Shown: positions 515-62,330, numbered from the stretch's first letter. The stretch: DNA of 64,000 nt from Pirellulales bacterium (GCA_046349875.1 JAXMBN010000022.1:34274-98273); one strand, 5' to 3'. Translations and numbers: made by a program. Notes: generated by a model not told the origin, from the letters alone.

Positions 515-1378
515 TTACTCGGGGACTTCCGGCCCAAACGAGTTTGGGGCAAGCAGAGATTTGTAATAGGTACTCGACCAATATTGTGGAAGCGGAGTTT
601 CCCATCGCCCACGCCCCAAGGCCGTTTGCTGACAGGCGTAGACGAACGCCAGTGATTGAATAACTATGGCCGCTATCACTATTACCACTGAAACGCGATG
701 CCCTAGCCTCTGGCTTGCCAAGGCGAGTAACTCGAAGATTTGAATGGCATGCAGTGCTATTCCATGAGGAAATTTCAGCACTCCACGTTGACCGAAGATC
801 TCTGGAGCCCTTCCTTGGTTCTGAAGCCAATGACCGATCAACGTAATTGCATATCCAATCGAGCACGAGATCAGAAGAAAAACTAGTCCTCCGGTTATCG
901 CGATCCTTCTTGAAGAAGTTTCCTCGCAAGTATCTTTCCAAGCATCTAAAAAGAAACATCGAATCATCAATTTCGCGATTACGATCACTGCAATCGAGAT
1001 CAGCGCCAGCATCGCAGTCTCGATCGATACCCCGAAACTACATTGAAGGTTGAAGTGACTGCGTTCCCCTCGCCATGTCTGTAGCGTGATAAGAAACACT
1101 TCACCCAAGAGCGAACTAGCCAAGATTAGGCGTTCTAGCTTGTCCGATCGCAATGGCTTCAACGCCTGGAAGACTCGTTCACAAGACCAAAGTGTGAGAC
1201 CTGTAGAAATGCCGAATAGGATGGCCTTTCGAAATGACAGCGGATCTTCCCACTCCCTGGATCCTATTAAGAAAAGAGGTATGTGTAACACGCCAGAAAG
1301 GATCAAAGCCCCAATTGTCGAATCAACCCAACGTTTGGCAATCTCTTGATCGACGATTTTAGACAGCATACGCATCAA
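515..1378 (-). CDS. Hypothetical integral membrane protein (287 aa, multiple hydrophobic helices).
   Basis: Long minus-strand ORF with several hydrophobic segments. Its start overlaps the folE2 stop by 20 nt. No recognisable catalytic motifs. Confidence 0.5.
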   Translation of the reverse strand: MMRMLSKIVDQEIAKRWVDSTIGALILSGVLHIPLFLIGSREWEDPLSFRKAILFGISTGLTLWSCERVFQALKPLRSDKLERLILASSLLGEVFLITLQTWRGERSHFNLQCSFGVSIETAMLALISIAVIVIAKLMIRCFFLDAWKDTCEETSSRRIAITGGLVFLLISCSIGYAITLIGHWLQNQGRAPEIFGQRGVLKFPHGIALHAIQIFELLALASQRLGHRVSVVIVIAAIVIQSLAFVYACQQTALGRGRWETPLPQYWSSTYYKSLLAPNSFGPEVPE

Positions 1379-2342
1379 GGCCGTTACGAGAATGAAATCC
1401 GTTTACAGAGTAGACTTCGCATTTAAACGCGTCGAATGCCTTTTCCGATATTTTCACCGGCCATTTGACAAGAGAGGCGGACCTTCGCCTAGCGGAGCGT
1501 TCTTGACATCTATGCGAACCGCGCGGTCTGATTTGATTATCACTTAGCCTTACTGATGTAAGCATAGGCGTTATGATTGTGAATGGACTCAAATTCTCTG
1601 AAAAGCACTCGTACCATACGATTCGTTCATCAGCATTCAGAACGATGGCCATATCTCGAACGATATCCTCTACAAATTTCGGATTTTCGTATGCCCGTTC
1701 GGTAACCCACTTCTCATCGGGTCGTTTCAATACTGAAAAAACTTGAGTAGACGCACATTTTTCAACCATCGAAAAGAGCTCTTCGATCCAGAGGTGCTGT
1801 CCATCCGACAGTCGAACTCTCACTGTCAGTTCGCATCTCTGATTATGGGCGCCGTACGCAGATATTTCTTTGGAGCAGGGACATAAACTCGTAGCAGGGA
1901 CTTTGATTCCGAGAATGAAATCGTCGGTACCATTGCTTGACATCTCGAAAGAAACGTCGATATCAAGCTTGCCCGAACGGCCCGTAACAGGTGCCTTCTT
2001 ATCAATAAAATAGGGGAAGGAAAGCTCCAAATGCACTTGCTCGGCATTTAGTCGCTCCTTCATCGTTCGGCAAATATCGCTCAGCATGTCAGAAGACAGG
2101 GACTCGTGATACTCATTCAGCACCTCGAGGAATCGAGACATATGTGTCCCTTTCACCTCCGGAGGGAGCCCTACAAACATATTAATCGTAGCAACCGTCG
2201 TTTGAGTTCCTGTTCCCGACCCCGATCCTGGTGTGCGAAGGGTGATTGGATACCGAACGGCCTTCACCCCAACTTTGTTGATTGCAACATTACGACGATC
2301 TCCGGTGGATTGAATGTCCGGAAGTGAAGAGGGCGATTCCAT
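1359..2342 (-). CDS. folE2: GTP cyclohydrolase FolE2/MptA (type IB), with a probable 1-nt indel near the 3' end.
   Basis: Conserved FolE2 blocks KGTHMSRF and CPCSKEISAYGAHNQR. The annotated ORF has an abnormal 60-aa tail. Adding one T to the A-run at plus 1591-1593 restores the canonical C-terminus ENFESIHNHNAYA, with a stop at about 1540-1542. Confidence 0.8.
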   Translation of the reverse strand: MESPSSLPDIQSTGDRRNVAINKVGVKAVRYPITLRTPGSGSGTGTQTTVATINMFVGLPPEVKGTHMSRFLEVLNEYHESLSSDMLSDICRTMKERLNAEQVHLELSFPYFIDKKAPVTGRSGKLDIDVSFEMSSNGTDDFILGIKVPATSLCPCSKEISAYGAHNQRCELTVRVRLSDGQHLWIEELFSMVEKCASTQVFSVLKRPDEKWVTERAYENPKFVEDIVRDMAIVLNADERIVWYECFSENLSPFTIITPMLTSVRLSDNQIRPRGSHRCQERSARRRSASLVKWPVKISEKAFDAFKCEVYSVNGFHSRNGLDAYAV

Positions 2343-2456
2343 AATCCTGAACCTATTCTCTCAAAGGTGAAAAACGGTGAGCGTTGGAGCACTGTAGTCA
2401 GGTCGCCGTCTTTGGAAAGTCCCTCTTCTCCGGATACTTGATATCCCCCACCACTC

Positions 2457-2520
2457 GCCACAAGGTGCCATCCACCTTTTGTTGACGCCCCACACAAGGT
2501 GCCAGCCACCTACTGTTGAC
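2457..2520 (+). repeat. Left terminal repeat pair (two ~27-bp units, A-type then B-type).
   Basis: Unit 1 is gccacaaggtgccatccaccttttgttgac (2457-2486). Unit 2 is cccacacaaggtgccagccacctactgttgac (2488-2520). Confidence 0.7.
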
Positions 2521-2562: not shown

Positions 2563-3795
2563 ATGGCGCGACCAAAGCGGGAATCGGTGTTTGGGCAAGA
2601 GGAAGTCGCCATCGCTCATTGCGTCCAGCGATGTGTGCGAAGGGCCTTTCTTGCAGGCAAAGATGAGGCGTCGGGAAAAGATTTCGAACACCGGCGAGGC
2701 TGGATTCGACATAGGATGGAACTGCTAGCATCCGCCTTCGGTGTCGATGTGCTGAACTATGCGGTCATGTCGAACCACGTGCATTCGATCCTTCGAACCC
2801 GGCCAGACATCGTAAAACTGTGGTCGGATGAAGATGTCGCCACGCGTTGGTTGAGGCTTTTCCCCGGGAAAAGACTGGATGATTGCCTAGGTGAACCAAC
2901 GCAACAGCAGATCGCGAAAGAAATGGCCGATGCCAAGCGAATGCTGGAACTTCGCAAGCGATTATCGAGTATTTCTTGGTTCATGCGAGCTGTATCTGAG
3001 CCTATTGCTCGCAAAGCCAATAATGAAGACAAGTGCACAGGTCGCTTCTGGGAAGGACGCTTTAAAGCTCAGAAGATTGTCGATGAAGCGGGGCTCTTGG
3101 CCTGCGCGATGTATGTCGATCTGAATCCCGTGCGAGCCGCCATGGCAAAAACTTCAGAGGCATCTAGATTTACCTCGGCCTATGATCGCATCAAGGCACA
3201 AAAAGGTTCTAAAAGAATCGCGGCAGCGATTGCATTGGAACCTTCGAGGATCGATGAAAAGACGATTCTGCAGCAGATCAAGTTGGCCAAGCGGCTTCGC
3301 GACAAAGAAGAAGTTGCTCGATTACAAAAGTGTCTAAGCGACTTTCGTGCAGAAAACGAAAAAAATTCAAAAGAAAAACAACGAGCCAAAAGCAAAGCCA
3401 ACGCTTCATGCCTAAGGCCTGTGGATGCATGGCTTGCGCCGCTACAACTCAACGAACATGATGTCATCGGTCCCAAGCCACATCATGGAGGAACACGAGC
3501 CAGCGATAAGGGCTTCTTGTCAATGACGCTTGCCGAGTACTCGACGCTGCTCGATTGGACGGGACGTCAAAACCGCCCAGACAAACGTGGCAAGATACCC
3601 GATGACCTTCAACCGATCCTCGAGCGAATCGGAATTGAAGGTTCGATGTGGTGTGACTTGGTGTGGGATTTCTCCAAGTACTTTGGGAAGTGTTATGCTG
3701 CGGGCAAGCCAGTAAACCTTCAAAAGGAAGCCGAGAACCGCAACATCGCCTGGAGTCGTGGCCAACGTTCCTGCCGCGCCTGCTTTACCGAGTAG
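2563..3795 (+). CDS. Y1 HUH tyrosine transposase (IS200/IS605 TnpA-like or REP-associated RAYT-like) with a C-terminal extension of about 200 aa.
   Basis: HUH motif in VMSNHVHSIL. Catalytic-Tyr region FWEGRFKAQKIVDE...AMYVDLNPVRAAMAK matches the Y(I/V)xxNPVRAGL block. 410 aa. Confidence 0.75.
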   Translation: MARPKRESVFGQEEVAIAHCVQRCVRRAFLAGKDEASGKDFEHRRGWIRHRMELLASAFGVDVLNYAVMSNHVHSILRTRPDIVKLWSDEDVATRWLRLFPGKRLDDCLGEPTQQQIAKEMADAKRMLELRKRLSSISWFMRAVSEPIARKANNEDKCTGRFWEGRFKAQKIVDEAGLLACAMYVDLNPVRAAMAKTSEASRFTSAYDRIKAQKGSKRIAAAIALEPSRIDEKTILQQIKLAKRLRDKEEVARLQKCLSDFRAENEKNSKEKQRAKSKANASCLRPVDAWLAPLQLNEHDVIGPKPHHGGTRASDKGFLSMTLAEYSTLLDWTGRQNRPDKRGKIPDDLQPILERIGIEGSMWCDLVWDFSKYFGKCYAAGKPVNLQKEAENRNIAWSRGQRSCRACFTE

Positions 3796-4045: not shown

Positions 4046-4500
4046 TGAAAGCGTGGCGATAAGATATTGGGCATGCTCTGTTTAGAGATGGTGGATTCCA
4101 CCGCTCATTCCCGAATGGATGCGATGGTTCTTTCCAGATCGTGGTGATTTCCTGGCTGCCGTTGGCAATCTCTCATCGTGCAAGCTTTGCTGGCAATTTC
4201 GCCGCGGATTCAAAAGTGGCGCACGATCTATGCCATTGTTTTCGATTTGCTTTCCCGAAGAGATCCAAGAGCTTCGACTCAGTGACAATAGCTCTTTTTG
4301 GGATCAGGGTTACCCGGCATTGATGCTGACGGATACCAGCTTTCTCAGAACCCTTACTATCATCAACCCACCGACACCCCTGACACGTTGGACTACCAAC
4401 GTATGACCGACGTCACACTCGGCGTTGCCTCCACCCTCCAACACCTCGACTCCTAACTCAAAAGAAACGCTCTTTGTTGGCAATTAATGATCAACTTGTG

Positions 4501-7500
4501 TTAACGCAACACTTCCGATTGTTTTAGAGCTTTGAGAATTGATGCAGCCAAATCGGGAATCGTAAATGGCTTTTGAACGAAGATTGGATTCTCACCCGCT
4601 GTCATACTCTGGAAAGCTTCCTCATTCAGATAGCCGCTCATAAGAATCACAGGCAATTTTGGAACCACAGCGCGGACCTTATTGGCTAGTTCTGAACCAG
4701 TCATTTGTGGCATGGAATAGTCGGTGATGAGAAGCTGAAAACTGTTTGGGGATTCTAGCAGTTGCTGAAGTCCCTCCGCAGCTGCAGTGACGGTTGTCAC
4801 AGAATATCCGAGATGCTTCAAAACATGTTCGGTGTGTTTCCCAACGGATGGTTCATCGTCGACGAGTAAAATTGATTCCTTTCGTTCTGGAGTCGATCTA
4901 AATTGATTGGCAACGGGCTGTAAACCCAAGTCCAACGGATCGACCGCCGCACCATCGTCTTTGTTTTGGACAATCGGCATCAATAACTGGAATGTCGTTC
5001 CTTGATTGGGCACGCTTGTTACCGCGAGCCCTCCGTGATTCTGTCGCACAATCCCATGTACAACGGCCAATCCAAGCCCGGTACCTTTTTCGGGCCCTTT
5101 GCTCGTATAGAAGGGCTCGAAAATCTTTGGCAGACACTCCGGTGCAATCCCGTTTCCATTATCCGTAACCCACAAAGATACGTAGCTCCCGGTCTTGGGT
5201 TTCACGATCCATGCCACACCATCCTCTTCCGACGCAATCACCACATTGCTCGTTCGGACTCCAATCCGCCCCTCGTCGGTAATTGCGTCGCGGGCATTGA
5301 GAACTAAATTCATGAGCAGTTGCTCAAGTTGTCCTTGATCAAGCCTTACATTTGCGAGATTTTCAGCGAGATCAAAATGGATGTGAATACGGTTCGGGAT
5401 CAGTTGTCGCAGCAACGGACCAAAGCTCTGAACAGACGAATTGATATTCAGAACTACCGGTCGAATAATCTGCTTTCGGCTAAAGGTTAGCAACTGTCGA
5501 GTTAACAACGCCGACTTTTCGGATGCGGACTCGATGGCGGACACATGTTCTGTTACTTGTTGCGAAATCGGCAACTTTCGTAACTCTGCCCCTAGTAAGT
5601 AGCAGTTCAAATTTACGATGGCCAAAGTGTTGTTGAGATCGTGAGCAATGCCGCCTGCCAAGTGCCCCGCGACCTCCATCTTGACGGAATACCTTAGTTG
5701 CTCTTCCGCTTTGACCTGTTCGGTTACATTTTGGACAATGCCATCCATAGATGACAAAACACCATCTACGTGGTGGGACCGAATCAAGCACCGGATCCAT
5801 CGAACTTCCTGATTCGGCAGAACGATCCGATATTGAAAGTCTTCACGATCGCTCGATCTTGTCGCTTGCTCTAAATACTCTTGAAATGCTGTGCGATCCT
5901 CTTCCGCAACCAAGGCGCAATACTCCTCGACCGTGGGTGGGCGTTGACTTGGATCGAGTCCATGAATCACAAAACACTGCTTGGACCAACTTGAACATCC
6001 AGTGTCGGCTTGCCAGATAAACGAACCCATTTGACCGAGCGACTGCGCGTCTTCCAAGGAGGCCAGCGTTTCCTTCTGTTCCCTTTCCACCAATTGCCTC
6101 GCTTTAGCTTCCTCCACCAATCTCCGATTGGTGGTATCCAATTCCAAGGTTCGATCGACAACGCGAGCCTCAAGGGATTCGTTAGCTCGATGCAATTCGT
6201 TGCGGGCAATCTCCAAACGAGACTTAGCTGTGTTGGCTTGCTTCCAACAGTAGATCGTTGTCGCTAGCCCCAAAGCCAAGCCAGCAGATAACATCGATAC
6301 GATATAAAGCGTAAAGCGGATGGGCCATGGTGGACCAGCTACCCAGTCAATGTCGGCAAGTGAGCGAATAAGCAGAACTTGCGTGTCCACATTGTCCATG
6401 GAAACCGGTGTCAACAACCCGCTTACACGGTATTCGGCTCCTCGCTGCAACTTTGGAAGTGTGCGTGTGGCAACATCATCCACGAGTCGGCATGTCAGCT
6501 TGGAATCCCCAGCGTAAAAGGAGAGTATGACCTCTGAATGAAAAGCGCTCACATCCCAGTAAGTCGCATTGAGCGTCACCATTTGATTGCGATATTCTGT
6601 TGTGTTCGCCACTGGTTTTCCCCGCGCAATGGTTCTTCCTGCGGCCGCTGAACTTGTAGATAACACCGTTCCATACTGCAACCACTGTCGGTCCCCTTCG
6701 CGTTTCAACACCCCTAAAACCTCGACGCGCTTCGTACCTTCAGGAAGTATTGTGTTGTTGAGTTTCCAATCGATGCCGAAGCCCTTTTCCACTAGCCAAG
6801 TCTCGTCTGCATCGCTGCAAAAGATGTCACCGGCGATCCTGACCACTGGATTCTTAATGCTTGACTTCAGCAATGATTCCTCGACGGTGCTTACAGGGGT
6901 AGCGTCTAAAATATCCAAATGCGTTGCCAGCATCTTGAACGACTCTGGGTTGGGTACGATGATCTTAACGGGCCGAGCATTTCCTTCCTGTGGAATCACA
7001 ATTCCACACACTTCTACCTCGGATGGTTCGTACACCTTGGGATCGATTCGAAAACTCGAATGAAATACAAGAGCTTCGACTCCCTCTGAAAGCAGCCCAT
7101 ACTCCATTTGCCCCGCAATGTTTGTTAGCCCAACGATGTGCCCGCGAACTCTCACAAAATCGGCGTCTACCCGATCATCAATAATATTTTGAATCGTTCG
7201 AAGTTTCGGATTTGGCAATACACCCTTGGATCTTGAAGCGATCTTCGAAACCATGACGAACGAGTTTCGATGCCCGGCAGCCGATACGCCGTGCAATTCC
7301 ACCTCTTCGCCCACTTCCATTGGCCAAAAGGATGCCTCAGCCTCGCTATTGAGTGCTTCGCAGAAAATTCCTCCGGAAGCGTCTTCAAGAAAGAAACCTT
7401 TCCATCCTTCCGGCACACAGGTAATCACGCCATGCAGAACGACAGGCAGTTGCTTTGCGGCTTCTTCGGCAGAGAGATATTTCGCTTCGAAGGTAGTGCG

Positions 7501-7623
7501 AATCGGCTCTTGTCCTTGAATCGGCCGCATTCCAACTGCCACCCCAAACACCACAAGAATGGCTAAACACCAACACTTCGTTGGAGAGCTTTGAGGATCA
7601 AAATGTGAATTTCGTATTCTCAT
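4501..7623 (-). CDS. Hybrid sensor histidine kinase / response regulator: signal anchor, ~480-aa periplasmic domain, TM, coiled coil, PAS, HisKA, HATPase and C-terminal REC.
   Basis: HisKA region AGHLAGGIAHDLNNTL. HATPase GTGLGLAVVHGIV. REC ILLVDDEPSV...ITDYSMPQMTG...KPF. The ORF is open to 7878, but MRIRNSHF...CWCLAILVVFGVAVG (start 7621-7623) looks like the signal-anchor start. Confidence 0.8.
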   Translation of the reverse strand: MRIRNSHFDPQSSPTKCWCLAILVVFGVAVGMRPIQGQEPIRTTFEAKYLSAEEAAKQLPVVLHGVITCVPEGWKGFFLEDASGGIFCEALNSEAEASFWPMEVGEEVELHGVSAAGHRNSFVMVSKIASRSKGVLPNPKLRTIQNIIDDRVDADFVRVRGHIVGLTNIAGQMEYGLLSEGVEALVFHSSFRIDPKVYEPSEVEVCGIVIPQEGNARPVKIIVPNPESFKMLATHLDILDATPVSTVEESLLKSSIKNPVVRIAGDIFCSDADETWLVEKGFGIDWKLNNTILPEGTKRVEVLGVLKREGDRQWLQYGTVLSTSSAAAGRTIARGKPVANTTEYRNQMVTLNATYWDVSAFHSEVILSFYAGDSKLTCRLVDDVATRTLPKLQRGAEYRVSGLLTPVSMDNVDTQVLLIRSLADIDWVAGPPWPIRFTLYIVSMLSAGLALGLATTIYCWKQANTAKSRLEIARNELHRANESLEARVVDRTLELDTTNRRLVEEAKARQLVEREQKETLASLEDAQSLGQMGSFIWQADTGCSSWSKQCFVIHGLDPSQRPPTVEEYCALVAEEDRTAFQEYLEQATRSSDREDFQYRIVLPNQEVRWIRCLIRSHHVDGVLSSMDGIVQNVTEQVKAEEQLRYSVKMEVAGHLAGGIAHDLNNTLAIVNLNCYLLGAELRKLPISQQVTEHVSAIESASEKSALLTRQLLTFSRKQIIRPVVLNINSSVQSFGPLLRQLIPNRIHIHFDLAENLANVRLDQGQLEQLLMNLVLNARDAITDEGRIGVRTSNVVIASEEDGVAWIVKPKTGSYVSLWVTDNGNGIAPECLPKIFEPFYTSKGPEKGTGLGLAVVHGIVRQNHGGLAVTSVPNQGTTFQLLMPIVQNKDDGAAVDPLDLGLQPVANQFRSTPERKESILLVDDEPSVGKHTEHVLKHLGYSVTTVTAAAEGLQQLLESPNSFQLLITDYSMPQMTGSELANKVRAVVPKLPVILMSGYLNEEAFQSMTAGENPIFVQKPFTIPDLAASILKALKQSEVLR

Positions 7624-7966
7624 TCGGATATTCCAGAACCTAATCCTGATAGCGCCACGAACTCCAATGCTCGGCGGGTACTTAGTTTGAGGATTCCCTA
7701 TTTGGATCTCAACATGCCCTCCCACTTTTTTGGGTAACTTCTCGACCTTTCCTTTTCCCTTCGCGTCGACTTTCTCCCCTACAACACATACCGAAATTTC
7801 GCAGTCTTGCCTGCGTAATCTGGATATTGGTGATCCGATGCCGCGGAGCGAACTACATAGCGAGTTCATGCTATGCATTCCTTAGAGATTCATCGAAACC
7901 CCAAGAACTAAAAAACGAGCGACAGTTTCAACTATGGCAAGATAGAACCGCTAGCGATTCGTTTGG

Positions 7967-9829: not shown

Positions 9830-10065
9830 GAATCACAATCCTTTGGCAAACACGGTCGTTCACTTCCACACATTCAGGGCGAACATCACCAGGATAGTTA
9901 TATCGAAAACCCAAGCCAACTCGATATCTACATTGCCGATTCTTATCGCGGCTCTTATCACTTTTGAATAACGTCCTATATTCCCCTTTCGTGCTATCCA
10001 TCCGTTATGATGATGGATCGTAAAAGCAATCGGTGAATCTTCTCTCCCTCGTCTTCGAATTCATC

Positions 10066-10986
10066 ATGGCAAAAGCGAAAGCTAAAACTAGTTCCTCCGC
10101 CGAATCAACCACGGCGTGGATCGATGGCCCTCAATCGTATCAGCTTGGTATTCAACAAGGAAAAGTTGTTTGCAAAAACCCCAAAGGCAAGGAGCTTGCT
10201 TCGTTGCCGGCTGCTATCAAGGACGATCCTGTCACGGATCAACTCCAGGCACTTGTGACATGGTTGGAAGATCATCGCATGGAATGTCTCCATACGGTCG
10301 AGCGGTGGATGTTGCGATCGCTGATCATACCACGTCAAACATTGGTGGAAGTTTGGCCGGATCCCGATTGGCGAGCTTCGCTGGAGAACATGGTGATTGC
10401 TCCATCGGGTGCAGATGGAAATGTGGAACGCGATCACTATGGATTGCTCAAAGATGCCGATGCAAACAAAGGCTTAGGAATTATCGATCTCGACGGCGAA
10501 TCGAAGTGGCTTCAATCACCATGCGTTGCCTTTCTTCATCCCATTTTGATTGGCGAATTGGAGGAACTACGAGATCTTGCGAATGACTTAGGAATCGTCC
10601 AACCAGTCGAGCAACTCTACCGTCCCGTCTTTCGTCCCATGCCGACCCAAATCGAACTCACTTCCATTCGCGACTATGAAGATGGCGAATTCGATCAGCT
10701 CAATTTTGCGCTGGGTCATTGCAAGAGACTTGGATATCCCGTGCGGGGCGGCTATGCCATTTGCAAAGTATGGGAGGGAGTTGCTCCCCTTGAAGCTCGC
10801 TACTATGTGGGAAGCGAATCACCTGAAAGCCCGACGATTACTGGCGATCTTATCTTTGTCGACCAAAAGCAACAGTCCGTTCCGATCCGGAACGTCGGCC
10901 CCGTAACCTTTAGTGAAGGTGTTCGTATGGCATCTTCCATCTACGCCAAACGCAAAGTCGAAAAGGCGGAAGGAGAACCATCATGA
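10066..10986 (+). CDS. Hypothetical protein (about 306 aa), first gene of a plus-strand block divergent from the SWIM gene.
   Basis: The ORF is open from a GTG at 10033. The ATG at 10066 (MAKAKAKTSSS) is the likely start. Protein-like composition, no recognised motif. Its stop overlaps the next start (ATGA at 10983). Confidence 0.5.
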   Translation: MAKAKAKTSSSAESTTAWIDGPQSYQLGIQQGKVVCKNPKGKELASLPAAIKDDPVTDQLQALVTWLEDHRMECLHTVERWMLRSLIIPRQTLVEVWPDPDWRASLENMVIAPSGADGNVERDHYGLLKDADANKGLGIIDLDGESKWLQSPCVAFLHPILIGELEELRDLANDLGIVQPVEQLYRPVFRPMPTQIELTSIRDYEDGEFDQLNFALGHCKRLGYPVRGGYAICKVWEGVAPLEARYYVGSESPESPTITGDLIFVDQKQQSVPIRNVGPVTFSEGVRMASSIYAKRKVEKAEGEPS

Positions 10987-20100: not shown

Positions 20101-20108
20101 GCACGTGA

Positions 20109-48536: not shown

Positions 48537-48900
48537 GGCAACTCCGGTGGCAGGCGATCGACGGTTCTCTAACTTAATACCAAGAACTGCATCTCAAGAT
48601 ATGCCTATCATGATCGTGCTACTACACCTTGAACACGATGGAAGAGCACTTTTCAATGGAATATGGAATGAGACGTTTCTTGATGCTGAACGATCTTGCT
48701 CATTCGGAAATAGATTCTTCATTGCCGGTTATTGTGGAAAACCGTGGTATACTGTTCCCATCGCCAATTCTTCAGCGATGCAGCCGCTTTATCCTCATGC
48801 AACCCATCGGAAATCCTAAAACGCCGCGATAGGAAGAAGTGAACCGAAGCGACTCTTATTCCCCGGCAGATTCATCGTCACTGCAATCTCATCCTAAGCC

Positions 48901-50340: not shown

Positions 50341-50480
50341 CTGGTCCTTTTGAGTTTTTGCGTTTCCTTCTGAACTCAATGCGGCTAAACAGCCCCATTC
50401 TTAGCCAGTCTCCCTCATCGCTCCCTGTTTGCGAGGCGACGATTCGAACCGAATGCGATAAACGTGCGTAAGATTATGGA

Positions 50481-52562: not shown

Positions 52563-52565
52563 TTC

Positions 52566-55500
52566 CTACCGAATCCATCGATTACCGTGTGTCTCCGCAA
52601 GGAGGATCAATCGAATCGATTGTGTCGCTGCTGGGTCAGCTGTTGGCGGTAAAACTTCAAAGGTTGCTGTCGCTTCTATTTCGGGAGGCTCCAGTTGCGC
52701 AAGCGATCTCGGACCGTCGAGTTTTGCAGGCATGGCGATCCAAGTTTCGATCCGATACGTACCTGGCGGAAGATGCGTGTTCAAGGTAAACGTCCCGTCG
52801 CTCGCGATAGTACCTTTGGCTCGATAAATCCCCTTTTCGGATCGGACATGCACATAAGCCCAAAGCGGAAGAGACCAATCGAAGTCTTTTGCTTGTTCAC
52901 CGGGGGAGCGAACAAACTGAGTGCCCTTCGACACAAGAATCTCACCTTGCAACGGTGCACCTCGGGGCGTTGTCCAATCGATTTTAACTACGGATCCGGC
53001 ATTCACAGTGATTGGTTCAGGGCTGCCGATATCGTAAGGCCCCGCATCGGAGGTGCGCTGGATCAGATACCGTCCTGCAGGCAACTCAAACCGATACGTG
53101 GCTCGCGTCCGCACTTGCTTTCCCTTTCCTTGCGTCGAATCGACGATCGTTTGCGATCGTTGCAAAACTTGAGTACCAGGAAGTGTGGAAGCTCCCTCCT
53201 TGGTCGAGAACCTTACCCGTCTCCGCAATTCATCCAAATTTCCCCATAGATCTTCGCGATCGAGTCGAAAAACCAAGAGTTCGACATCGGCATCTCTTTC
53301 CTTCGCATCGTCTGCAACAAATTGCCACTCGTCGATTCCTAATTCAATGCTTGCCGGAGGAGCAAGTGTCAACTCTGTATTCACCGTAGTATCTTGAATG
53401 GCAAACAACTGAACATCACCGGTAGGACGAGCCACCACGCAGGTACCGGTACCAGAAGCTTCTAGCGAAAACCGCCCCTCAGCATCCGTCACGCCATGCG
53501 CGATTTGCGCATTCGATCGTTTCGCATTCTCCAATAGTTCTGCAACGAATGGCTTTTGCCCCTGCGGTACCAAGTACACTTGGGCATCGCGAATGGGGTT
53601 GCCGCGATAATCAGACACGCGACCTACCAGTCGCTGTCGGCCTTTTCGCTCATTGGCGGCTTCTTTCGAATCGGCAGAAGGTTCTGCTTGAATGCGAATC
53701 GAATGGGTCGGTGTTGGGATCGTTACATCAACAAACTTGAAGACCTCTTCACCTTTGCGATCATCACCTTTTCGCGTTTCACGGGCCTCGATGGTCAGTT
53801 CCACCTCGACCCGTCCGAGATCTTCAGGCCCCAAAACGGGAGAAGAAATCATTTGGCGAAAATCGCTCTCGGGCAAATGCACTTCAGCGGTCAGCGTATA
53901 CTTGCCTGGCGGTAGATGCTCGCTGATCCAAAAGCTTCCATCTTTTTTGGTTCGTACGGAATCATAGAATCTTTCGCCACTGCGGACGTCGACTTTGCCA
54001 TAAAAAGGAACAGTCCAATCGAGCTTACGGGGTGCTTCTCCTTCCTGCCGCACAAAGATGCAATTGCTTGGCAAATGAATTTGTCCTCGAACCCCCATGC
54101 CTTCTGTGCGCCGCCAATCGATTCGTGGCGCAGCACCACCATCGACTGTGATCCACGCTTCTTCAATGGGTTGGTAAGCCGAGCGCAAACGCTGAACGCG
54201 ATACTTGCCTGGTGGAAGAGCCACCTCGATCTGGGCTTCGAGGAGGAAGTTGCGAAACTCGCCGTTTCCACCTGCCAATACCGTATCCTTTCGCTCACTT
54301 CGTAAGACTCCTTTGGAAAGAAGGCCGTTGCTTGAAGGATGCATCACTAAGAGCTGTCGGTTGTACTCGCAAAACTTCCAATCAGGCTCATTCGATGGAT
54401 CGCGAGTGATATTGATCCAACACTGAAGTGGACTTTCACTATCAACCGAGATCGCTTCCTTTCCTTTCTTTGATAACTCTTCCGTATACCCATAGCGAAG
54501 GTCGATCAAAACTTTGCCTGGTTCGGGCAAGCGAAGATCGGCGACCGCACCTTGTTCAGGGACAGGGAATGTCCAAAGGTCGACCAAGGGGGCCGAAGCG
54601 GCCAACACGCCGCGACGATTGGCAGGCAATTCAAAATGGCCGCGTTCATCGGTAATCGTCTCTGCGACCGCACCATCACGGCTTCGTTCAAGGGGCCAAC
54701 GGTTGGAATCTGCGCCTGTTTTTCCTTCGACAATATTAGACCGATGTCCCTCGGGAATGAAAAAGACTTTCGCTTGAGCGAGCGGCATTCCGTGATGATC
54801 GCGCAGGACTCCACGGACTTTACCAAGAGGCTTCAATCGGACCACGCGTTCCAATTGTTTTGGGCGTGGCAATGGCAATGCATCGATCACTTCCGTAACT
54901 TCGTATCCAGCGGCAAAGACACGCAATCGATCGTGACTACCATCTTCGCGATAGTGTACTAGCTGCTCAAAGACGCCACCTGGCAAATCTCGTCCGTATT
55001 GCTTGGAAAAGCCCCAAGCGATTTGCGAAGGAATCGTTGGATCATTCATTCCCCATTCCCAAGAGGCCTTTTCAATGGGCATTCCTGTTTCATCATCCAC
55101 GAGCTTGCCGACGATGGTAACGTAGTGTGCAACCATCTGCGATTCATTGCTTGCCGGTGATGCCTCAAGTTCCTCGCCTTGATGGTTGTTTTGATCCGAC
55201 GACGTTACAGCGAGTGAAGGTGGGAGTTCGCTATCATCCGCAATCATCCGCATGCTCCCACACAAAGTGATTGCAGCACTGCCCACGATGATGGCGAACT
55301 GACGCCAAAGCGAGTTCTTTTCGTCAAGTTTGTGTTGAACCGCTTGGGTGAATAAACGCTCGATACGAACTTGCATCGTCCGCTTCGAGAGAAAAGAAGT
55401 GGCAATCAAATGACGGGTGTCACGCCCTTGCAATGCCTTGCGGCTTGCATCGAGCAGCAGTTCAGCCAGGCGCTGCGGAGGACATCCACCACGCACGACC

Positions 55501-56432
55501 GCCTCATCGCACAATAATTCCGACGCGAGTTCGCGCTGCGCCAGCAACCAACGAACCCCCGGATGAAACCACCACACGATGCGGAGAGCTTCCGATAGCA
55601 ATCGCCATAGATCATCCCAGCGTTGCACGTGCGACAATTCGTGGTGCCACGCTGCGCGGCGGGATTCGTTACTCCAATCCAGCCAATGTTTGGGAACGAG
55701 GATCATGACCGGGAATCCACAAAGAACCATCGGCACTTGTACGGCATCGTGCATACCTACCAGTACCGCTCTCCGTACCTTGCCCTCCTTTCTGCATTCT
55801 TCAAACACCATTCGTTCGCTTGCAGGTATCTCCATCGCACTCTGCCGCCATCGAACGAGCTCCTTCAGCGATAACACCATGCGAATGCTCAATAAGAAGA
55901 CTCCCATCACCCAGAGCGTCAAAAGGAATGTTGATAAATAACCCCAGGCCTGTTGATCGGAGACATTGATATTAGGCGAACCGCCTTTGAAATGAGCTGG
56001 TGTATCTACCTTAGGAGTGTTCGCGTCTATGATCGCACCGTTGATCGCTACCACTTCCGAACGTTCCGTATCGTGCGGATCCTCTTGGTCTTGCTCATGA
56101 TGTTGCGAGGTAACACTGGATGCGATGGTCGATTCGGGCGCAGCGCGGTGGGAAGACGATGGGGCAACGGATGCCGATGTTGGCTCACCAGGAAGGACCA
56201 GCCAACCAGGGCCCCACTTAGGAATGACTCCGATCAAGGTGCAAATGACAATGGCCGAAGCTACGATGGCGTGGTAAACCGAAGTAGACCGCGGTCTACG
56301 CATGCGAAACCAAAACGCAACAAGGATGGCTGCAATTGCCCACCCTAGCGATTGCGTTAACAACCAAATCAACCAAGCGTCGAGTGCACTTGAATGCGAG
56401 CCAGCGATCCCCACGATTCGTTCCATGGTCAT
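52566..56432 (-). CDS. BlaR1/MecR1-family M56 peptidase signal transducer with a very large extracellular C-terminal region (1288 aa).
   Basis: M56 motif HELSHVQRWDDLWRLL. Four N-terminal TM helices. Long C-terminal repeat-containing domain. Start overlaps the blaI stop (ATGA). Confidence 0.75.
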   Translation of the reverse strand: MTMERIVGIAGSHSSALDAWLIWLLTQSLGWAIAAILVAFWFRMRRPRSTSVYHAIVASAIVICTLIGVIPKWGPGWLVLPGEPTSASVAPSSSHRAAPESTIASSVTSQHHEQDQEDPHDTERSEVVAINGAIIDANTPKVDTPAHFKGGSPNINVSDQQAWGYLSTFLLTLWVMGVFLLSIRMVLSLKELVRWRQSAMEIPASERMVFEECRKEGKVRRAVLVGMHDAVQVPMVLCGFPVMILVPKHWLDWSNESRRAAWHHELSHVQRWDDLWRLLSEALRIVWWFHPGVRWLLAQRELASELLCDEAVVRGGCPPQRLAELLLDASRKALQGRDTRHLIATSFLSKRTMQVRIERLFTQAVQHKLDEKNSLWRQFAIIVGSAAITLCGSMRMIADDSELPPSLAVTSSDQNNHQGEELEASPASNESQMVAHYVTIVGKLVDDETGMPIEKASWEWGMNDPTIPSQIAWGFSKQYGRDLPGGVFEQLVHYREDGSHDRLRVFAAGYEVTEVIDALPLPRPKQLERVVRLKPLGKVRGVLRDHHGMPLAQAKVFFIPEGHRSNIVEGKTGADSNRWPLERSRDGAVAETITDERGHFELPANRRGVLAASAPLVDLWTFPVPEQGAVADLRLPEPGKVLIDLRYGYTEELSKKGKEAISVDSESPLQCWINITRDPSNEPDWKFCEYNRQLLVMHPSSNGLLSKGVLRSERKDTVLAGGNGEFRNFLLEAQIEVALPPGKYRVQRLRSAYQPIEEAWITVDGGAAPRIDWRRTEGMGVRGQIHLPSNCIFVRQEGEAPRKLDWTVPFYGKVDVRSGERFYDSVRTKKDGSFWISEHLPPGKYTLTAEVHLPESDFRQMISSPVLGPEDLGRVEVELTIEARETRKGDDRKGEEVFKFVDVTIPTPTHSIRIQAEPSADSKEAANERKGRQRLVGRVSDYRGNPIRDAQVYLVPQGQKPFVAELLENAKRSNAQIAHGVTDAEGRFSLEASGTGTCVVARPTGDVQLFAIQDTTVNTELTLAPPASIELGIDEWQFVADDAKERDADVELLVFRLDREDLWGNLDELRRRVRFSTKEGASTLPGTQVLQRSQTIVDSTQGKGKQVRTRATYRFELPAGRYLIQRTSDAGPYDIGSPEPITVNAGSVVKIDWTTPRGAPLQGEILVSKGTQFVRSPGEQAKDFDWSLPLWAYVHVRSEKGIYRAKGTIASDGTFTLNTHLPPGTYRIETWIAMPAKLDGPRSLAQLEPPEIEATATFEVLPPTADPAATQSIRLILLAETHGNRWIR

Positions 56433-56815
56433 GGTTTCCTTTTCGATTGGAGTTCTTTTAGCTTGGCTTCTAGTTCGCGTATCTCTGCCGCCGAAAGCTC
56501 TCCCGATTCCACCAAACCAAGCGCCAGCCTTCGGGCCGATCCGCCGAAGAATCGTTTGGCGATGTCGGTCAACAAACGTTTCGTGCCTTGCTGCCGCGTC
56601 ATGGTAGGAGCGTACCGATAGGCGTTCTCTTCCCGCGTCGTCGAGACCAAGCCTGCTTTTTCCATGGTCTGCATCAACCCAAGGACGGTGGTGTAGGGAG
56701 TCTTCTTGGGCATGAACTCAAGCATTTCACGAACGGTCAGCGGTCCATGCTCCCATAACAGCTCCAGAACTTGATATTGCCGATCCGTGACGACAATCGC
56801 TTTTCGTCCAGCCAT
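56429..56815 (-). CDS. BlaI/MecI/CopY family transcriptional repressor.
   Basis: MAGRKAIVVTDRQYQVLELLWEHGPLTVREMLEFM...TTVLGLMQTMEKAGLV. The internal ATG at 56815 is the likely start (the ORF is open to 56884). Confidence 0.8.
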   Translation of the reverse strand: MAGRKAIVVTDRQYQVLELLWEHGPLTVREMLEFMPKKTPYTTVLGLMQTMEKAGLVSTTREENAYRYAPTMTRQQGTKRLLTDIAKRFFGGSARRLALGLVESGELSAAEIRELEAKLKELQSKRKP

Positions 56816-57067
56816 CTCACTCTCCTCATTGTTCCGTACCCATATGCACGTACGCATTATTCCGTAGGCCCGGCATGAAGTCAAGCTTTTCGATGGGGAA
56901 TCACAAAATCACTGCACTACTGAAAAGAACTCTGGTGAAATGAAGGTGGATCCCGCCACCAAGGCCATTCAAAAGCAAAACGCTGAGTAATGAATGAGAC
57001 TTTCGCCAATCATCCACCACTCAGCGTTCTGCATCCCAAGAACTGCTTGAAGGGAGGGAACATCGAT

Positions 57068-58186
57068 TTAAAGGAGCTGGACTACCTTGTCTGCTAGCCC
57101 CTTTTCCGTCAGGCTTCGTTCGCCAAGCACGATATTCATCTTGCCTGCCGATGCAACCTTTTCCAAAACTTCTAACTCGCGCAATCGCATCAAGGTAGGG
57201 TTCTCGGACAACAGCTTTGCCGTATTGGCTTGGCTACGCATCGCAGCCGTTTCTTCGCGGCGAGCGATCAGGTTTGCTTCGGCAGCCTTCTTGGCTTCCG
57301 TCACTCGATTCATCAAGTCCTTCATCTCTCCCGGGAGGATCACATCTTTGATCCCCACCGATCGCAACTGCAGACCTAACGCAGCTGCTTGAGCTCGAAC
57401 GTTCGTTTCAAGTTCTTGAGCGACATCCTCTTTGCCGGTCAAAAAGCTATCCAATTCGCGAGCTCCCACGATCGAACGCAGCGCCAGTTGAACCTCGCGA
57501 TACAACGACTGTCGAACATCACTGGATGCAGAAACGGCGCGCCGCGGATCCGCGATGACATAGGTTACCAGTGCGTTCATTCGCAACGTGACCTTGTCAA
57601 AGGTCATCATTTCTTGACCACCGACATCGATCTGCATTTCCCGAAGGTCGAGTTCGACGACTCGCGCATCGGCAGCATCCTTCCAGAACGCATACAGTCC
57701 CGAAGCAAGCTGAGCTTCATAGCGACCATCCGTGTACAAGACACCCACACAGTCACGCTCAACTTTGCATACATCCAACCATCGCGATGAATCCGCCGCG
57801 CGGACGATGGCTTTGAGTTCGCTATGCTCCACACGTACCTTGCGAGCATCGACGATTTCAAGCCGCACTTCGCGTACGCCCTTCCAATAAGCGTGTAATC
57901 CAGGTCCGAGAATACGCGTGAACCGACCGTCTACCCAAACCAACGCCCGCTGGAAATCCTTCAAATCGACGACCTCTGCATTCTCTCGCAGATATCCCGA
58001 GCGGACGATCATGTCGAGTTGATCATCGACAATCCATGGATCGCGCTTCGATACGATCTTGATCTTCGAGCGATTCCATGGGTCCAATAGCCAATGCTTA
58101 CCGGCATGCAACAATCCTCGAAACTCGCCGTCGTGGAAATGAAGGCCTACCTCATAGCTTCGAATGGCAACTCGCTTCACAATCAT
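57068..58186 (-). CDS. SPFH / band-7 (stomatin/prohibitin-like) domain protein.
   Basis: 372 aa with an SPFH-like core and a C-terminal coiled-coil AEANLIARREETAAMRSQANTAKLL. Confidence 0.65.
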   Translation of the reverse strand: MIVKRVAIRSYEVGLHFHDGEFRGLLHAGKHWLLDPWNRSKIKIVSKRDPWIVDDQLDMIVRSGYLRENAEVVDLKDFQRALVWVDGRFTRILGPGLHAYWKGVREVRLEIVDARKVRVEHSELKAIVRAADSSRWLDVCKVERDCVGVLYTDGRYEAQLASGLYAFWKDAADARVVELDLREMQIDVGGQEMMTFDKVTLRMNALVTYVIADPRRAVSASSDVRQSLYREVQLALRSIVGARELDSFLTGKEDVAQELETNVRAQAAALGLQLRSVGIKDVILPGEMKDLMNRVTEAKKAAEANLIARREETAAMRSQANTAKLLSENPTLMRLRELEVLEKVASAGKMNIVLGERSLTEKGLADKVVQLL

Positions 58187-58587
58187 TTTTTTCGCCTCCT
58201 TTCACGATGCGAACGATTTATCTTGACTCATTGTTTTCTAAAAAACGCCTTAAGGCGATCGGTTGTTGCTCATCACCGTACGACCGAGCGGAGAATAATT
58301 CGAAAGGAAACATCACTTGTGCTGCTCGATTTCGATCGTCGCCGCAGAGATTTGCGATGACGTTGCTCGTCGAGTCACACTAGCTCGATTCCTCCTGCCA
58401 TTACCTTCAAAGCTCATCGCTTGGTTGCCGGTCTCTTGTCAATCGTCCGTTGTCCACTCAGCTCTTCTTTCGAAGCGCCGAGCGCCGAAGCGAATGACAA
58501 GAATCCCAAGCAGACAAGTTCGACAACCGATGCCCGCCAGCTTTGGTGGAGGACGCTTTCGCGCCCACGGTTGGTTTTCAGCCAACT

Positions 58588-58662
58588 TGGTGCGTCAGAC
58601 GGGACTCGAACCCGTGACAGTCAGGTTACTAGCCTGATGCTCTACCGCTGAGCTACTTCAAT
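58588..58662 (-). tRNA. tRNA-like sequence (D-arm, anticodon arm with loop CTAGTAA, T-arm, CCA). The 5' acceptor strand does not pair, so it is a probable pseudo- or partial tRNA.
   Basis: Minus-strand read: ATTGAAG TA GCTCAGCGGTAGAGC A TCAGGCTAGTAACCTGA CTGTC ACGGGTTCGAGTCCCGT CTGACGC A CCA. The D, anticodon and T stems are canonical. The acceptor ATTGAAG/CTGACGC forms only 3 of 7 pairs. Confidence 0.4.
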
Positions 58663-58862
58663 CGAAAGCGCTTTGGAGCCCATTCACGGAACGCGACACA
58701 CTAACAGCCTCTCGCCGAGTGCATCGAGCCGCTGGAACGCCATCGACCAAACGCATGCATCGAAACTGGAATGCAGTGATTCGAACACTGTCCAACAGTT
58801 CTTGAGAACTGAGTCCGCTCCCAGGCGAACATCCCTAACGACCTTAGACCCGATGCGACCAT

Positions 58863-58900
58863 AAAAAAACCCGGTGTACCTATCAGAGGAACACCGGGTC
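58863..58900 (-). terminator. Rho-independent terminator (8-bp GC-rich stem, then a U7 run on the minus strand).
   Basis: Plus strand: aaaaaaa-cccggtgt-(13 nt)-acaccggg. The minus transcript reads CCCGGUGU...ACACCGGG UUUUUUU, downstream of the VOC gene and upstream of the tRNA-like sequence. Confidence 0.55.
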
Positions 58901-59185
58901 TTCCAAAGCCACATTGGTCCACCAAGACTACCTCTGTCGATACGACTCCCTGTTCGAACAACCCTCGAAGGGAGAAAACGTCGCGTTCTGCTCAAGGAAG
59001 AATGCGAGTTCATTACCCAAGGATTGGGATGTTCGAAGAATGAAGCTACCTGCTATTGATTTCATGGAACGTCTTCGGTGGATCGTATGATTTCTCGAAT
59101 CGAAATGGACTCATTCCTACATAGTCGCAATCAAAGAGACCCGTCGAGGCACTCGGGTTCGCATCCACTCATCACAAAAGTAGAT

Positions 59186-59683
59186 TTACTTCTTGGTTGG
59201 TTTGGAAACGTGCTGATCGATCAGAATGGGGTTTCCGTCGGGATCCACTAACGTGACGAAAGCTGGGCCGGTCGACGACTCGTCAGCCGTTGCCCCCAAC
59301 GTGAAACCACGCTTCTTGAGCTCTTGCTGGATCTCGCGGACATCTTGAAAATCGGTAAGGGTATTTTTGTCGCGGTCCCATCCCGGGTTATACGTCAACG
59401 AATTCTTCTCGAACATACCTTGAAACAACCCGATCGTACTGGTGTCATTTTGCAGAACCACGTACTTCCGCTTGATGTCGCCTCCACTCACTTTGAACCC
59501 CAGCTTTTCATAAAAGTCTTTGGATGCCTGGATATCCTTGACAGTCAAGCTGATCGAAAAATTGCCGAGTTGAAGATCGGATTTTTCGGAAGCTGCAAAC
59601 TCGACTTCGGAAGGGGAGAGGACGGGATAGAGCGACCAACCTACGAGAGCAAAAACGAAACAGGAAATGGCGTATCGCATCAA
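59186..59683 (-). CDS. VOC (glyoxalase/bleomycin-resistance fold) family protein with a signal peptide.
   Basis: MMRYAISCFVFALVGWS leader. VOC-like blocks ISLTVKDIQASKDFYEKLGFKV...FVTLVDPDGNPILI. Confidence 0.7.
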   Translation of the reverse strand: MMRYAISCFVFALVGWSLYPVLSPSEVEFAASEKSDLQLGNFSISLTVKDIQASKDFYEKLGFKVSGGDIKRKYVVLQNDTSTIGLFQGMFEKNSLTYNPGWDRDKNTLTDFQDVREIQQELKKRGFTLGATADESSTGPAFVTLVDPDGNPILIDQHVSKPTKK

Positions 59684-59754
59684 CTAACTCCTTGGTGAAT
59701 AATAGGGTGAACGCCGACATGATAGCCCAATCCCCGATTCCTTCTTGACAAATC

Positions 59755-60675
59755 TTGCGATCTCCAAAGAAATCTCGCTCATCGACCATTCCCAGCTACT
59801 TAGAACGCATCAATCGAGTGCTTGATCGGATCTATTCGGACTTGGCTGCCCCCGTGCGGCTTGCCGATCTGGCAGAACTCGCAGATCTTTCACCGTTTCA
59901 CTTTCACCGCGTATTTCAAGCCATGGTAGGCGAAACTCCCAGTGATTTTGTGAAACGCCTTCGTCTCGAGAAAGCAGTCTCGATCATGAGCCATGGCAAG
60001 CACAAGTCATTGACTGCCGTGGCATTGGAATGCGGCTTCACCAGTTCTTCCGACTTCACAAGAAGCTTTAAACTTCGCTATGGAGTCGCCCCCAGCAAGT
60101 TTGATGTCGCTCAATGGCAAGCTCAACAGGAAAGGAAGATTGCGATCGCGGCAAGCCAATCGCCGTTTCATGTTGCCAAGCCACTACCGCGTTCGAATCC
60201 CGATCATTTCCGCGTACGCATTCGGGAACTACCACCGCGTTACGTCGCTTACATTCGCGTCTCCAATCCCTATCAAGGGGACGGAGTCGTGCAGGCGGCG
60301 CATCGCCTGATGGACTGGGCCGACAAGCATCATCTAGCCGATGGTCAATGGCTCGGCTATCAATACGAGAATCCTAAAGTAACCGCTCTCGAATCCTGCC
60401 ATTACTACGTCGCCGTTGAGGTTCCTTTCAAGATAGCGACCGACCGCGACGTTGGATGGTTTCGCTTCCCCGCCATGAAGGTCGCAGAGATCGAGATGAA
60501 GGGGGACATTCAAATGGAGATTCGGCTCTTTCAGTGGCTCTATGGCAGTTGGCTTCCACGAAGCAATTACCGGCCAGCCGATTTTCCAGGTTTTGAAGTT
60601 TGGAACGGCCGCCCATTCGCCCACGGCTATGAATACTTCGAGCTTCGTATTCATCTACCGATCCAAGAGTTGTAG
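59755..60675 (+). CDS. AraC-family transcriptional regulator with a C-terminal GyrI-like effector-binding domain.
   Basis: AraC HTH ([39 protein letters not shown]...[13 protein letters not shown]) followed by a ~150-aa GyrI-like region. Confidence 0.75.
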
Positions 60676-60770
60676 ATGATTCAAGGGCCTGGCCAAGCGA
60701 CATCCGAATGAGAATTCATGATATAACGAATCGACACGGTTTTTTCTCTCTCAAATTATTGGAGCCCATC

Positions 60771-61358
60771 ATGGCCTGGTCGATCTCAACGCTTCTAAGC
60801 GTGGTTCTGGCAACGTCGATTGGGCTACCAGCTTTCGCATACGCACCACCTTCATCGAAACCGAATTTCGTCATCATCTTGGCGGATGATCTTGGCTATG
60901 GAGATATGCAATGCAACAATCCAGAACGAGGTAAGATTCGTACGCCGCATATGGATGGCTTAGCGGCAAGTGGGATGCGTTTTACCGACGGGCACTCCAG
61001 TTCTGGATGTTGTTCTCCCTCACGATACACGTTGCTCACCGGACGATACCATTGGCGAACGTCTTTGCAGTCGGGTATTGTGCCCGTATGGGGAAAGCCG
61101 CTCATCGCTGAAAACCGCATGACCATTGCATCGCTTGCTGCCAGTCAAGGGTATTCGACGGCTTGTATTGGCAAATGGCACCTCGGAAGAGATTGGCCGA
61201 TTACTCCAGAACAAAAGCCGCACTTTACGGGCTTCGGCGGGCAAGGGGGTGGTGGAGGCAAGGTGGAAACCAGAAATTACCGATGCCTTTCCGAAAACTT
61301 GGCAGGCTGTCTTTTCCAAACGCATTCCCAGTGGACTAACCGAGCGCGGCTTTCTTAG
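60771..61358 (+). CDS. Arylsulfatase-family (formylglycine-dependent sulfatase) N-terminal fragment.
   Basis: Signal peptide [25 protein letters not shown]. Metal-binding start [15 protein letters not shown]. FGly motif [20 protein letters not shown]. Reads out of frame after a GGGGG run (61255-61259). In-frame TAG at 61356. Confidence 0.7.
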
Positions 61359-62330
61359 CAATACTTTGGTACCGACGTGCCGAATTGGCCACCTTATTGT
61401 TTCATCGAAAAGGATCGCACGCTCGGAATACCCAGTGAACTTCTTCCGGCATCGAAGTTGGTCAAGAATCAAGCGAGCTTGCAAGGGCCGAGCCTTCCTG
61501 ACTGGCAGTTGGAAAACATTCTTCCATCTTTGGCTTCTCGCGCTGAACTTTTTATCCATCAGCAATCGCAAGCTCAAACTCCGTTCCTTCTCTACCTTCC
61601 TCTCACATCACCGCACACGCCCTTGGCAGTGAATAGTACTTGGAAAGGCAAGAGTGGCCTTCAAAGCGATTACGCCGACTTGGTTATGGAAACCGATGAA
61701 GTGGTCGGTCGCGTCCTGCAAGCGATTCGAACTGCAGGAGTCGAAGACAATACCTTTGTACTCTTCACTTCAGACAATGGATGCGCGAACTACATCGGTG
61801 TCAAAGAAATGGAAACGCAAGGCCATTATCCGAGCGGACCGCTTCGCGACTACAAGACTTCGGTGTACGAAGGGGGCCATCGCGTTCCTTATGTGATTCG
61901 ATGGCCGGGAGTCGTCCGTCCAGGTACCGTATGCAATCAACTCGTTCTTCATGCGGACCTCATCGCTACGATGGCCGAGATATTTGAACGTCCGTTGCCG
62001 CCTGATGCCGGTGAAGACAGCTTCAGCCTGATGCCGTTGCTTCAAGGTGGCATGCAACCGATTCGCTCGCACAGCGTGAACACGGCTTGCAATGGACTCC
62101 CCAGCTACCGCGAGGGACACTGGAAATATGTCGCGAAGGAAGAGCCCGAACTTTACAACCTAGAGAAGGACCTGCGGGAATCGGAGAATCTAGCTGCTCA
62201 AGAACCGGCTCGCGTTCAAGCGATGCAAGAATCGTTCGAAAAGATTATCCGTGCTGGTCGAAGTACTCCAGGGCCTCAGCAAAAAAACGACATCAAAGTT
62301 GTTCGTTATCCGAAAGCGAAATCCTCGTAA
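61359..62330 (+). CDS. Arylsulfatase-family C-terminal fragment, the same gene as 60771-61358.
   Basis: TDVPNWPPYCFIEKDR...PFLLYLPLTSPHTP...LFTSDNG...YEGGHRVPYVIRWPG, conserved sulfatase blocks. An intervening ~90-nt stretch reads in frame 1. Confidence 0.7.
   Translation, partial: QYFGTDVPNWPPYCFIEKDRTLGIPSELLPASKLVKNQASLQGPSLPDWQLENILPSLASRAELFIHQQSQAQTPFLLYLPLTSPHTPLAVNSTWKGKSGLQSDYADLVMETDEVVGRVLQAIRTAGVEDNTFVLFTSDNGCANYIGVKEMETQGHYPSGPLRDYKTSVYEGGHRVPYVIRWPGVVRPGTVCNQLVLHADLIATMAEIFERPLPPDAGEDSFSLMPLLQGGMQPIRSHSVNTACNGLPSYREGHWKYVAKEEPELYNLEKDLRESENLAAQEPARVQAMQESFEKIIRAGRSTPGPQQKNDIKVVRYPKAKSS

Follow-up and report, generated by a model that had tools for sequence, protein, structure and literature searches.

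Broken genes in a Pirellulales metagenome-assembled genome as a probable artefact of locally uncorrected long-read sequence

Why should reading frames be broken over and over in some genes of a planctomycete contig and not at all in their neighbours? The case is a stretch of 64,000 nucleotides from a Pirellulales bacterium (GCA_046349875.1, JAXMBN010000022.1, 34274-98273), which we call the window and in which all positions are counted from the first base. A sequence-only reading had listed frequent single-base frame disruptions, often in homopolymer runs and confined to a subset of genes, and had proposed coverage troughs, GC-dependent error or real decay as explanations. We compared the window with a conspecific assembly and with contigs from independent sequencing runs, and we conclude with a probability of roughly 0.9 that the broken genes are an assembly artefact, consisting of locally uncorrected, raw-quality long-read sequence in an otherwise accurate contig.

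The window belongs to a 98,273-bp contig of a metagenome-assembled genome (MAG) available at NCBI under locus tags U0905_, in which 7 of 10 intact window reading frames have an exact protein match (MFO09235xx-MFO09236xx). Its Pfam content is planctomycete-like, with an ECF sigma factor (PF07638), a Ser/Thr kinase with WD40 repeats, PQQ-like propellers and sulfatases. As conspecific reference we used the 393-kb contig JBAJGS010005745.1 of assembly GCA_036704275.1, from which three loci were compared with window positions 999-25909 (L019), 21836-26564 plus 31579-50237 (L001) and 52603-64000 (L007), with 96-98% identity. Independent Logan contigs were retrieved from SRA runs other than the window's (SRR30183946/7, SRR34385853 and SRR16508135) and span 4403-13228 (L020, L021 and L022), 19083-23200 (L023), 23889-31206 (L018), 31579-33063 (L025), 38758-41413 (L024) and 59117-64000 (L016 and L017); they are 98.8-99.8% identical to the window when the dense stretch described below is left out. 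Intact gene architecture was also taken from distant short-read MAGs and contigs, namely L008 and L009 (about 70% amino-acid identity) and L002, a MEGAHIT contig from another species with about 75% DNA identity, which is too divergent for base-level calls.

A total of 191 indel events are private to the window, 166 of them in a single stretch at 14512-21101 and 25 in about 11 patches of 1-290 bp. Privacy was assessed using the conspecific loci L001, L007 and L019 and the Logan contigs L016, L020, L021, L023, L024 and L025, to the exception of the sites in a PAS/histidine kinase/receiver (PAS/HK/REC) gene, for which a single reference (L018) was available. Wherever two references cover a site, both agree against the window, and all tested indels are missing from the conspecific assembly as well as from six Logan contigs. 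The events are strongly clustered, with an index of dispersion per kb of 19.6 for the whole window (p about 1e-217) and of 3.8 without the dense stretch (p about 5e-20). Outside this stretch, 13 of 24 intervals between neighbouring events measure at most 120 bp, a number that none of 20,000 randomised placements attained. The remaining coding sequence, about 39 kb, is intact without any window-side indel, including a gene for a 1121-amino-acid (aa) Ser/Thr kinase with WD40 repeats (36861-40226, plus strand) and the other three genes longer than 3.3 kb (4501-7878, minus strand; 43339-47001, plus strand; 52566-56432, minus strand). The approximately 27 kb overlapped by Logan contigs is free of other coding indels, with zero indels across 4403-11315. 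This supports two points made from the sequence alone, that the damage leaves long genes untouched and that a uniform random error could not leave them clean.

Over the 6.6 kb of the dense stretch (6,590 bp), 166 indel events and 301 mismatches separate the window from L019. The indels comprise 111 deletions and 55 insertions of 1-5 bp, plus one of 12 bp, so that deletions are twice as frequent as insertions, and the overall rates are about 2.5% for indel events and 4.6% for mismatches, of which about 2.7% as excess substitutions. Since the Logan contig L023 has 3 indels relative to L019 in 4.1 kb and 44 relative to the window (19083-23200), the window is the outlier. Over the same DNA, L019 encodes intact genes of 1679, 370, 1257 and 331 aa in the architecture also found in L008 and L009.

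The substitutions in the dense stretch are distributed as noise rather than as evolved differences. Mismatches at first, second and third codon positions number 91/78/131, compared with 33/22/123 in the flanking clean genes (chi-square p = 4e-7), and the excess that remains after removing the expected real divergence is near uniform (about 68/63/46). A chimeric join at 14.5-21.1 kb, or a segment recombined there from a divergent or foreign lineage, would explain why mismatch density jumps at defined borders. Functional DNA of that origin would however keep its frames open and its changes at third positions, whereas the frames are shattered here and the changes near uniform, and gene order and content are collinear with both L019 and L023, which makes such a segment extremely improbable. 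We also looked for repeats flanking the two borders that could mark a deletion variant or a mis-join, and found one shared 10-mer and nothing longer, which gives these candidates no support. GC-dependent error can be set aside as well, with a GC content of 0.522 within the dense stretch, 0.504 over the remaining window and 0.499 in the island that carries the PAS/HK/REC gene.

Most of the genes in the dense stretch form part of a four-gene operon (10066-20764) conserved in Pirellula-like MAGs (L008, L009 and L019), which encodes a DUF4132 protein (306 aa), a protein of 1679-1695 aa, a MoxR AAA_5 ATPase and a DUF5682 + VWA_CoxE protein. The gene for the 1679-1695-aa protein (10983-15999, plus strand), which we call the giant gene and which has no Pfam match, is intact in L008, L009 and L019 and falls into at least 5 frames in the window. 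Private indels affect it at 11316, 12883, 12950 and 12970 before the dense stretch sets in at 14512 (L020, L021 and L019 agree against the window). A homologue search with the 529-aa fragment of this protein that was deposited (MFO0923586.1) retrieved the window's own fragment and distant relatives, and nothing else. The gene for the MoxR-type AAA_5 ATPase (16067-17168, plus strand; 370 aa in L019) and that for the DUF5682 + VWA_CoxE protein (17165-20764, plus strand; 1257 aa as called in L019) lie within the dense stretch and are shattered. Correcting indels only yields 1690 open codons for the giant gene; stops persist in the MoxR and VWA genes, which therefore carry substitution errors too, as random noise would give. 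At 19631, within the VWA gene, an in-frame 12-bp unit (TTCAACCTCCTC) is present in one more copy in L019 than in the window and Logan L023.

The borders of the dense stretch do not coincide with those of genes. Position 14512 falls within the giant gene, the first 3.5 kb of which are nearly clean, and position 21101 falls within a gene for a 331-aa hypothetical protein (20840-21833, minus strand), the 3' part of which is disrupted by the final errors in the stretch (20884-21101). The latter protein was deposited with 257 aa (MFO0923594.1), versus 331 aa in four Logan/ENA sequences and in GCA_036704275.1.

The 25 events outside the dense stretch were located at 1529/1594, 11316, 12883-12970, 22466-22754, 29073-75, 29801-05, 31022-53, 31313, 31724-31835, 41052 and 61272-61356. 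These short patches combine indels and substitutions within 30-290 bp, as in the last one, which has mismatches at 61287-61289, 61330 and 61337. No common motif, such as a methylation site, was obvious at the patches when inspected by eye, without a formal test. Four Logan contig ends (13228, 31206, 31579 and 41413) lie 100-360 bp from patches, a pattern that looks suggestive but comprises too few cases and comes from other samples.

In folE2 (1540-2342, minus strand), a run of four A is shortened to three at 1591-1594 (AAAA in L019, AAA in the window). The minus strand reads gagaatttgagtcc at this point, and restoring one T recovers the conserved C-terminus ENFESIHNHNAYAYISKAK and the true stop codon (1540-1542), just downstream of which a second one-base deletion is found at 1529. 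FolE2 was consequently deposited with a false C-terminal extension (MFO0923580.1, 327 aa versus 267-274 aa in relatives). A gene for a hypothetical protein of 358-379 aa (21852-22989, minus strand) is split in three by the patch at 22466-22754, with indels at 22466 (+2), 22556 (-1), 22733 (-1) and 22754 (-2), and was deposited as proteins of 207 aa (MFO0923595.1) and 80 aa (MFO0923596.1), versus 379 aa in Logan.

The PAS/HK/REC gene (27024-31455, plus strand) carries four lesions. The first three were called against L018: a one-base deletion at 29073 accompanied by substitutions at 29073-29075, insertions of two and one bases at 29801 and 29805 (net +3), and changes of -1, +1 and -2 at 31022, 31038 and 31052 (patch 31022-31053). 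The fourth, an additional G at 31313-31315, was called from an alignment of the receiver domain with the paralogue at 4504-7878. In Logan L018, this gene is present and intact, with a single reading frame open over at least 1394 aa. The region around it (26565-31578, the gene and its flanks) is absent from GCA_036704275.1, where the stop of a PQQ gene is followed 11 bp on by the start of a methyltransferase gene, and Logan L025 starts exactly at 31579. From these alignments, 26565-31578 looks like a strain-variable island, and 4 of the 11 patches lie within its 5 kb (binomial p = 0.012).

Next to the island, the methyltransferase gene (31592-32210, plus strand; 204 aa in relatives) contains +T at 31724, +CGGA at 31756 and -A at 31835, called against both L001 and Logan L025. 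The SRPBCC/AHSA1 gene (40628-41243, minus strand) has lost its N-terminus through a two-base deletion (GCGC to GC) at 41051-41052, called against both L001 and Logan L024, and is deposited as a truncated protein (MFO0923608.1). The sulfatase gene (60771-62330, plus strand; 518 aa in relatives) is interrupted by an 85-bp error patch at 61272-61356 with +1 at 61272, +1/-1 at 61290/61294, +2 at 61355-61356 and 5 mismatches relative to L007 and L016, and its halves were deposited as separate proteins of 195 and 317 aa (MFO0923621.1 and MFO0923622.1). At the gene level, the sulfatase is intact in L002 (518 aa); the copy in GCA_036704275.1 is broken at another site (61487).

The sequence-only reading had named folE2, the PAS/HK/REC gene and the methyltransferase, SRPBCC and sulfatase genes as broken by small indels, and the references bear out all five. 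It had placed several of the lesions 3-20 bp away from where they are (TTTT at 29077-29080, AAA at about 31704, a T-run at about 41055 and GGGGG at 61255-61259), and it had missed the two hypothetical protein genes at 20840-21833 and 21852-22989 (both minus strand).

To the worst-hit genes (giant protein, MoxR and VWA) belonging to one operon, and to the PAS/HK/REC gene being accessory and missing from a conspecific assembly, one might give a biological meaning, namely that an operon and accessory genes are decaying in this strain. We corrected the indels while keeping the window's mismatches, and full-length frames were restored in eight genes (folE2, the 5' part of the giant gene, the 379-aa, 331-aa, PAS/HK, methyltransferase, SRPBCC and sulfatase genes) with no nonsense mutation in any of them, against what pseudogenisation would leave. 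The ratio of indels to excess substitutions in the dense stretch is about 0.9, far above the values known for natural decay. Decay would moreover require 166 indels in 6.6 kb although strains that are more than 99% identical carry intact copies, and it would have to begin and end inside genes, largely sparing the giant gene over its 5' 3.5 kb and the 331-aa gene over its 5' part. The indels are also bunched within tens of bases, and none is common to relatives. We consider genuine pseudogenisation highly improbable, and the suggestion of real decay is not upheld.

A few events in short runs, together with one A7 tract at 22754, could recall phase variation or programmed ribosomal frameshifting at slippery tracts. 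The tracts involved are however mostly 1-4 bases long and several internal hits occur per gene, substitutions co-occur with the indels, and the orthologues in at least five assemblies are read in one frame, so that the chance of such a mechanism is practically negligible.

The sequence-only reading had favoured the homopolymer signature of 454, Ion Torrent or nanopore sequencing. Its technical origin stands and the signature does not. We defined run membership as lying in a run of at least 3 identical bases, which holds for 12% of random bases of window DNA. In the dense stretch, 22 of 98 one-base indels (22%, p = 0.004) are in such runs, an enrichment of 1.8-fold, and outside it 10 of 25 window-side events are (40%, about 3-fold). 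True run-length errors do occur, at 1594 (A4 to A3), 31038 (A3 to A4), 31313 (GG to GGG), 31835, 12950, 22733 and 22754 (A7 to A5), as platform-typical indels from 454, Ion Torrent or polished nanopore data with a roughly uniform rate per run would produce. Yet 60-78% of the events fall outside runs of at least 3 and include multi-base or non-repeat changes (such as +CGGA, +GA and -GC) with accompanying substitutions, and the events are not spread according to run content, given the dispersion and the clean coding sequence reported above and the absence of any run-length error in the approximately 27 kb compared with Logan contigs. A real signature of this kind is seen instead in GCA_036704275.1, where 20 of its 36 own deletions are in runs (56%, p = 7e-10). 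That assembly carries about 1 one-base deletion per kb, and these split its slipin, 1220-aa kinase, M56 peptidase and 620-aa protein genes, all intact in the window. We regard homopolymer error as a very unlikely sole explanation for the window.

The artefact that we favour probably arose as follows. The source would be a long-read or hybrid metagenome assembly in which correction brought most bases to very high accuracy but left the segment 14512-21101, along with about 11 patches of 1-290 bp, at the error rate of raw or almost raw long reads. The mixed insertions, deletions and substitutions left there shift frames and lead gene callers to split genes, and the NCBI pipeline (PGAP) then deposited the pieces as separate proteins; the subset of affected genes is simply whatever genes lie beneath uncorrected DNA. 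A long-read assembly is expected because a RayT/IS200-like transposase of 410 aa (2563-3795), intact in the window and split in the conspecific assembly, has at least 8 near-identical copies in the same MAG, each inside a contig of 35-209 kb, with more in JGI metagenomes. Multicopy repeats of this kind are normally resolved by long reads only. The error profile of the dense stretch matches that of a single or barely corrected nanopore read. PacBio continuous long reads are rich in insertions, and the accuracy of HiFi reads is far higher. With deletions exceeding insertions and a total error of about 5-6%, the platform would thus be nanopore-like. The accuracy of the clean remainder could come either from short-read polishing or from a deep modern long-read consensus.

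Correction would have failed where accurate or sufficient reads were locally missing, either in strain-variable DNA or in places whose reads had gone to a competing contig. For polishing, depth has to be high throughout, which is difficult to achieve with complex samples (proovframe preprint, 10.1101/2021.08.23.457338), and a conservative polisher edits a base only if a depth threshold is met and there is one unambiguous alternative (Polypolish, PMC8812927). The excess of patches in the island is indirect evidence in keeping with a local drop of usable depth where DNA varies between strains. Among the three explanations proposed from the sequence alone, a local failure of consensus or polishing, i.e. 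a coverage trough, appears to be the best fit.

Several points weigh against this account. A literature search on GCA_036704275, JBAJGS, SRR30183946 and SRR34385853 found no paper; the platform, like the reason why polishing failed, is deduced from the sequences themselves. The Logan contigs come from other runs and show near-identical strains to be intact, not the sampled population. The multicopy transposase at 2563-3795 is clean, and since at least 8 copies of it exist, simple multi-mapping of polishing reads is unlikely to be the cause. The dense stretch also occurs in the other assemblies and thus gives no sign of varying between strains. Finally, the lesions at 1594, 11316 and 41052 are inseparable by sequence from rare genuine private mutations. 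Taken jointly, there is a slender chance that some isolated lesions are genuine private mutations or minority alleles, with candidates in folE2 (A-run deletion), in the SRPBCC gene (GC deletion) and at 29801-29805 (in-frame +3), or that the 6.6-kb block is a real, heavily mutated allele from a rare cell lineage and not read noise.

Other differences between the window and its references were recorded along the alignments. The segment 7754-7960, which covers the 5' end of a histidine-kinase gene and intergenic DNA, diverges strongly from L019, with the 500-bp bin 7501-8000 containing 81 mismatches and 11 indels, and is identical to Logan L020; it is therefore a hot spot of real divergence and not an error. 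An in-frame repeat-length polymorphism between strains is found at 33057, where a 36-bp Gly/Met-rich unit is repeated in a SIMPL (DUF541) gene. The region 50237-52603 measures 2.4 kb here versus about 7.8 kb in the conspecific contig, with a Glyco_hydro_130 gene at the edge of L007, and judging from this alignment it appears to be further strain-specific gene content. In an intergenic A-run at 63248-63249, the window differs by 2 bases from L007 and Logan L017 and is the same as Logan L016, which means that the run length is truly polymorphic or that the other assemblies are wrong here.

The 64-kb window contains at least 11 mis-annotated genes, and we identified the deposited fragments for seven of them. 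This MAG would yield biased pseudogene counts, completeness estimates, pangenome comparisons and metabolic inferences, and unevenly so because the errors come in blocks and not at a uniform rate; the earlier advice to treat its annotation and pseudogene counts with caution was well placed. Public databases already contain the false proteins. The comparison with a conspecific assembly and Logan contigs, combined with codon-position and indel spectra, offers a check that requires no reads and tells assembly noise from real decay. The relevance of these results lies in annotation quality and not in biology: the artefact is of a familiar kind, unusual in how blocky it is, and it involves no new biology.

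Three known situations can be set beside the window. In decaying genomes, such as those of Mycobacterium leprae and recent symbionts, adjacent genes carry multiple frameshifts, as they do here. Real decay however respects gene units, is common to close relatives, involves nonsense mutations and larger deletions, and has far fewer indels per substitution, and none of these hallmarks holds in the window. The conspecific contig JBAJGS010005745.1 (GCA_036704275.1) shows nanopore-type consensus errors in which one-base indels likewise split genes and the fragments are called as proteins. Its errors are fairly even at about 1 per kb, nearly all one-base deletions and 56% in runs of at least 3, and they strike genes that are clean in the window, whereas those of the window are patchy, of mixed type and weakly linked to runs. 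The closest likeness is with the residual unpolished regions addressed by tools such as Polypolish and proovframe (PMC8812927; 10.1101/2021.08.23.457338), where indel frameshifts fragment genes while the rest of the contig is accurate, errors stay where polishing reads are few, ambiguous or absent, and protein- or reference-guided correction restores the genes. Unlike such regions, which show isolated homopolymer slips, the window contains a contiguous 6.6-kb block at approximately raw-read error together with short multi-error patches.

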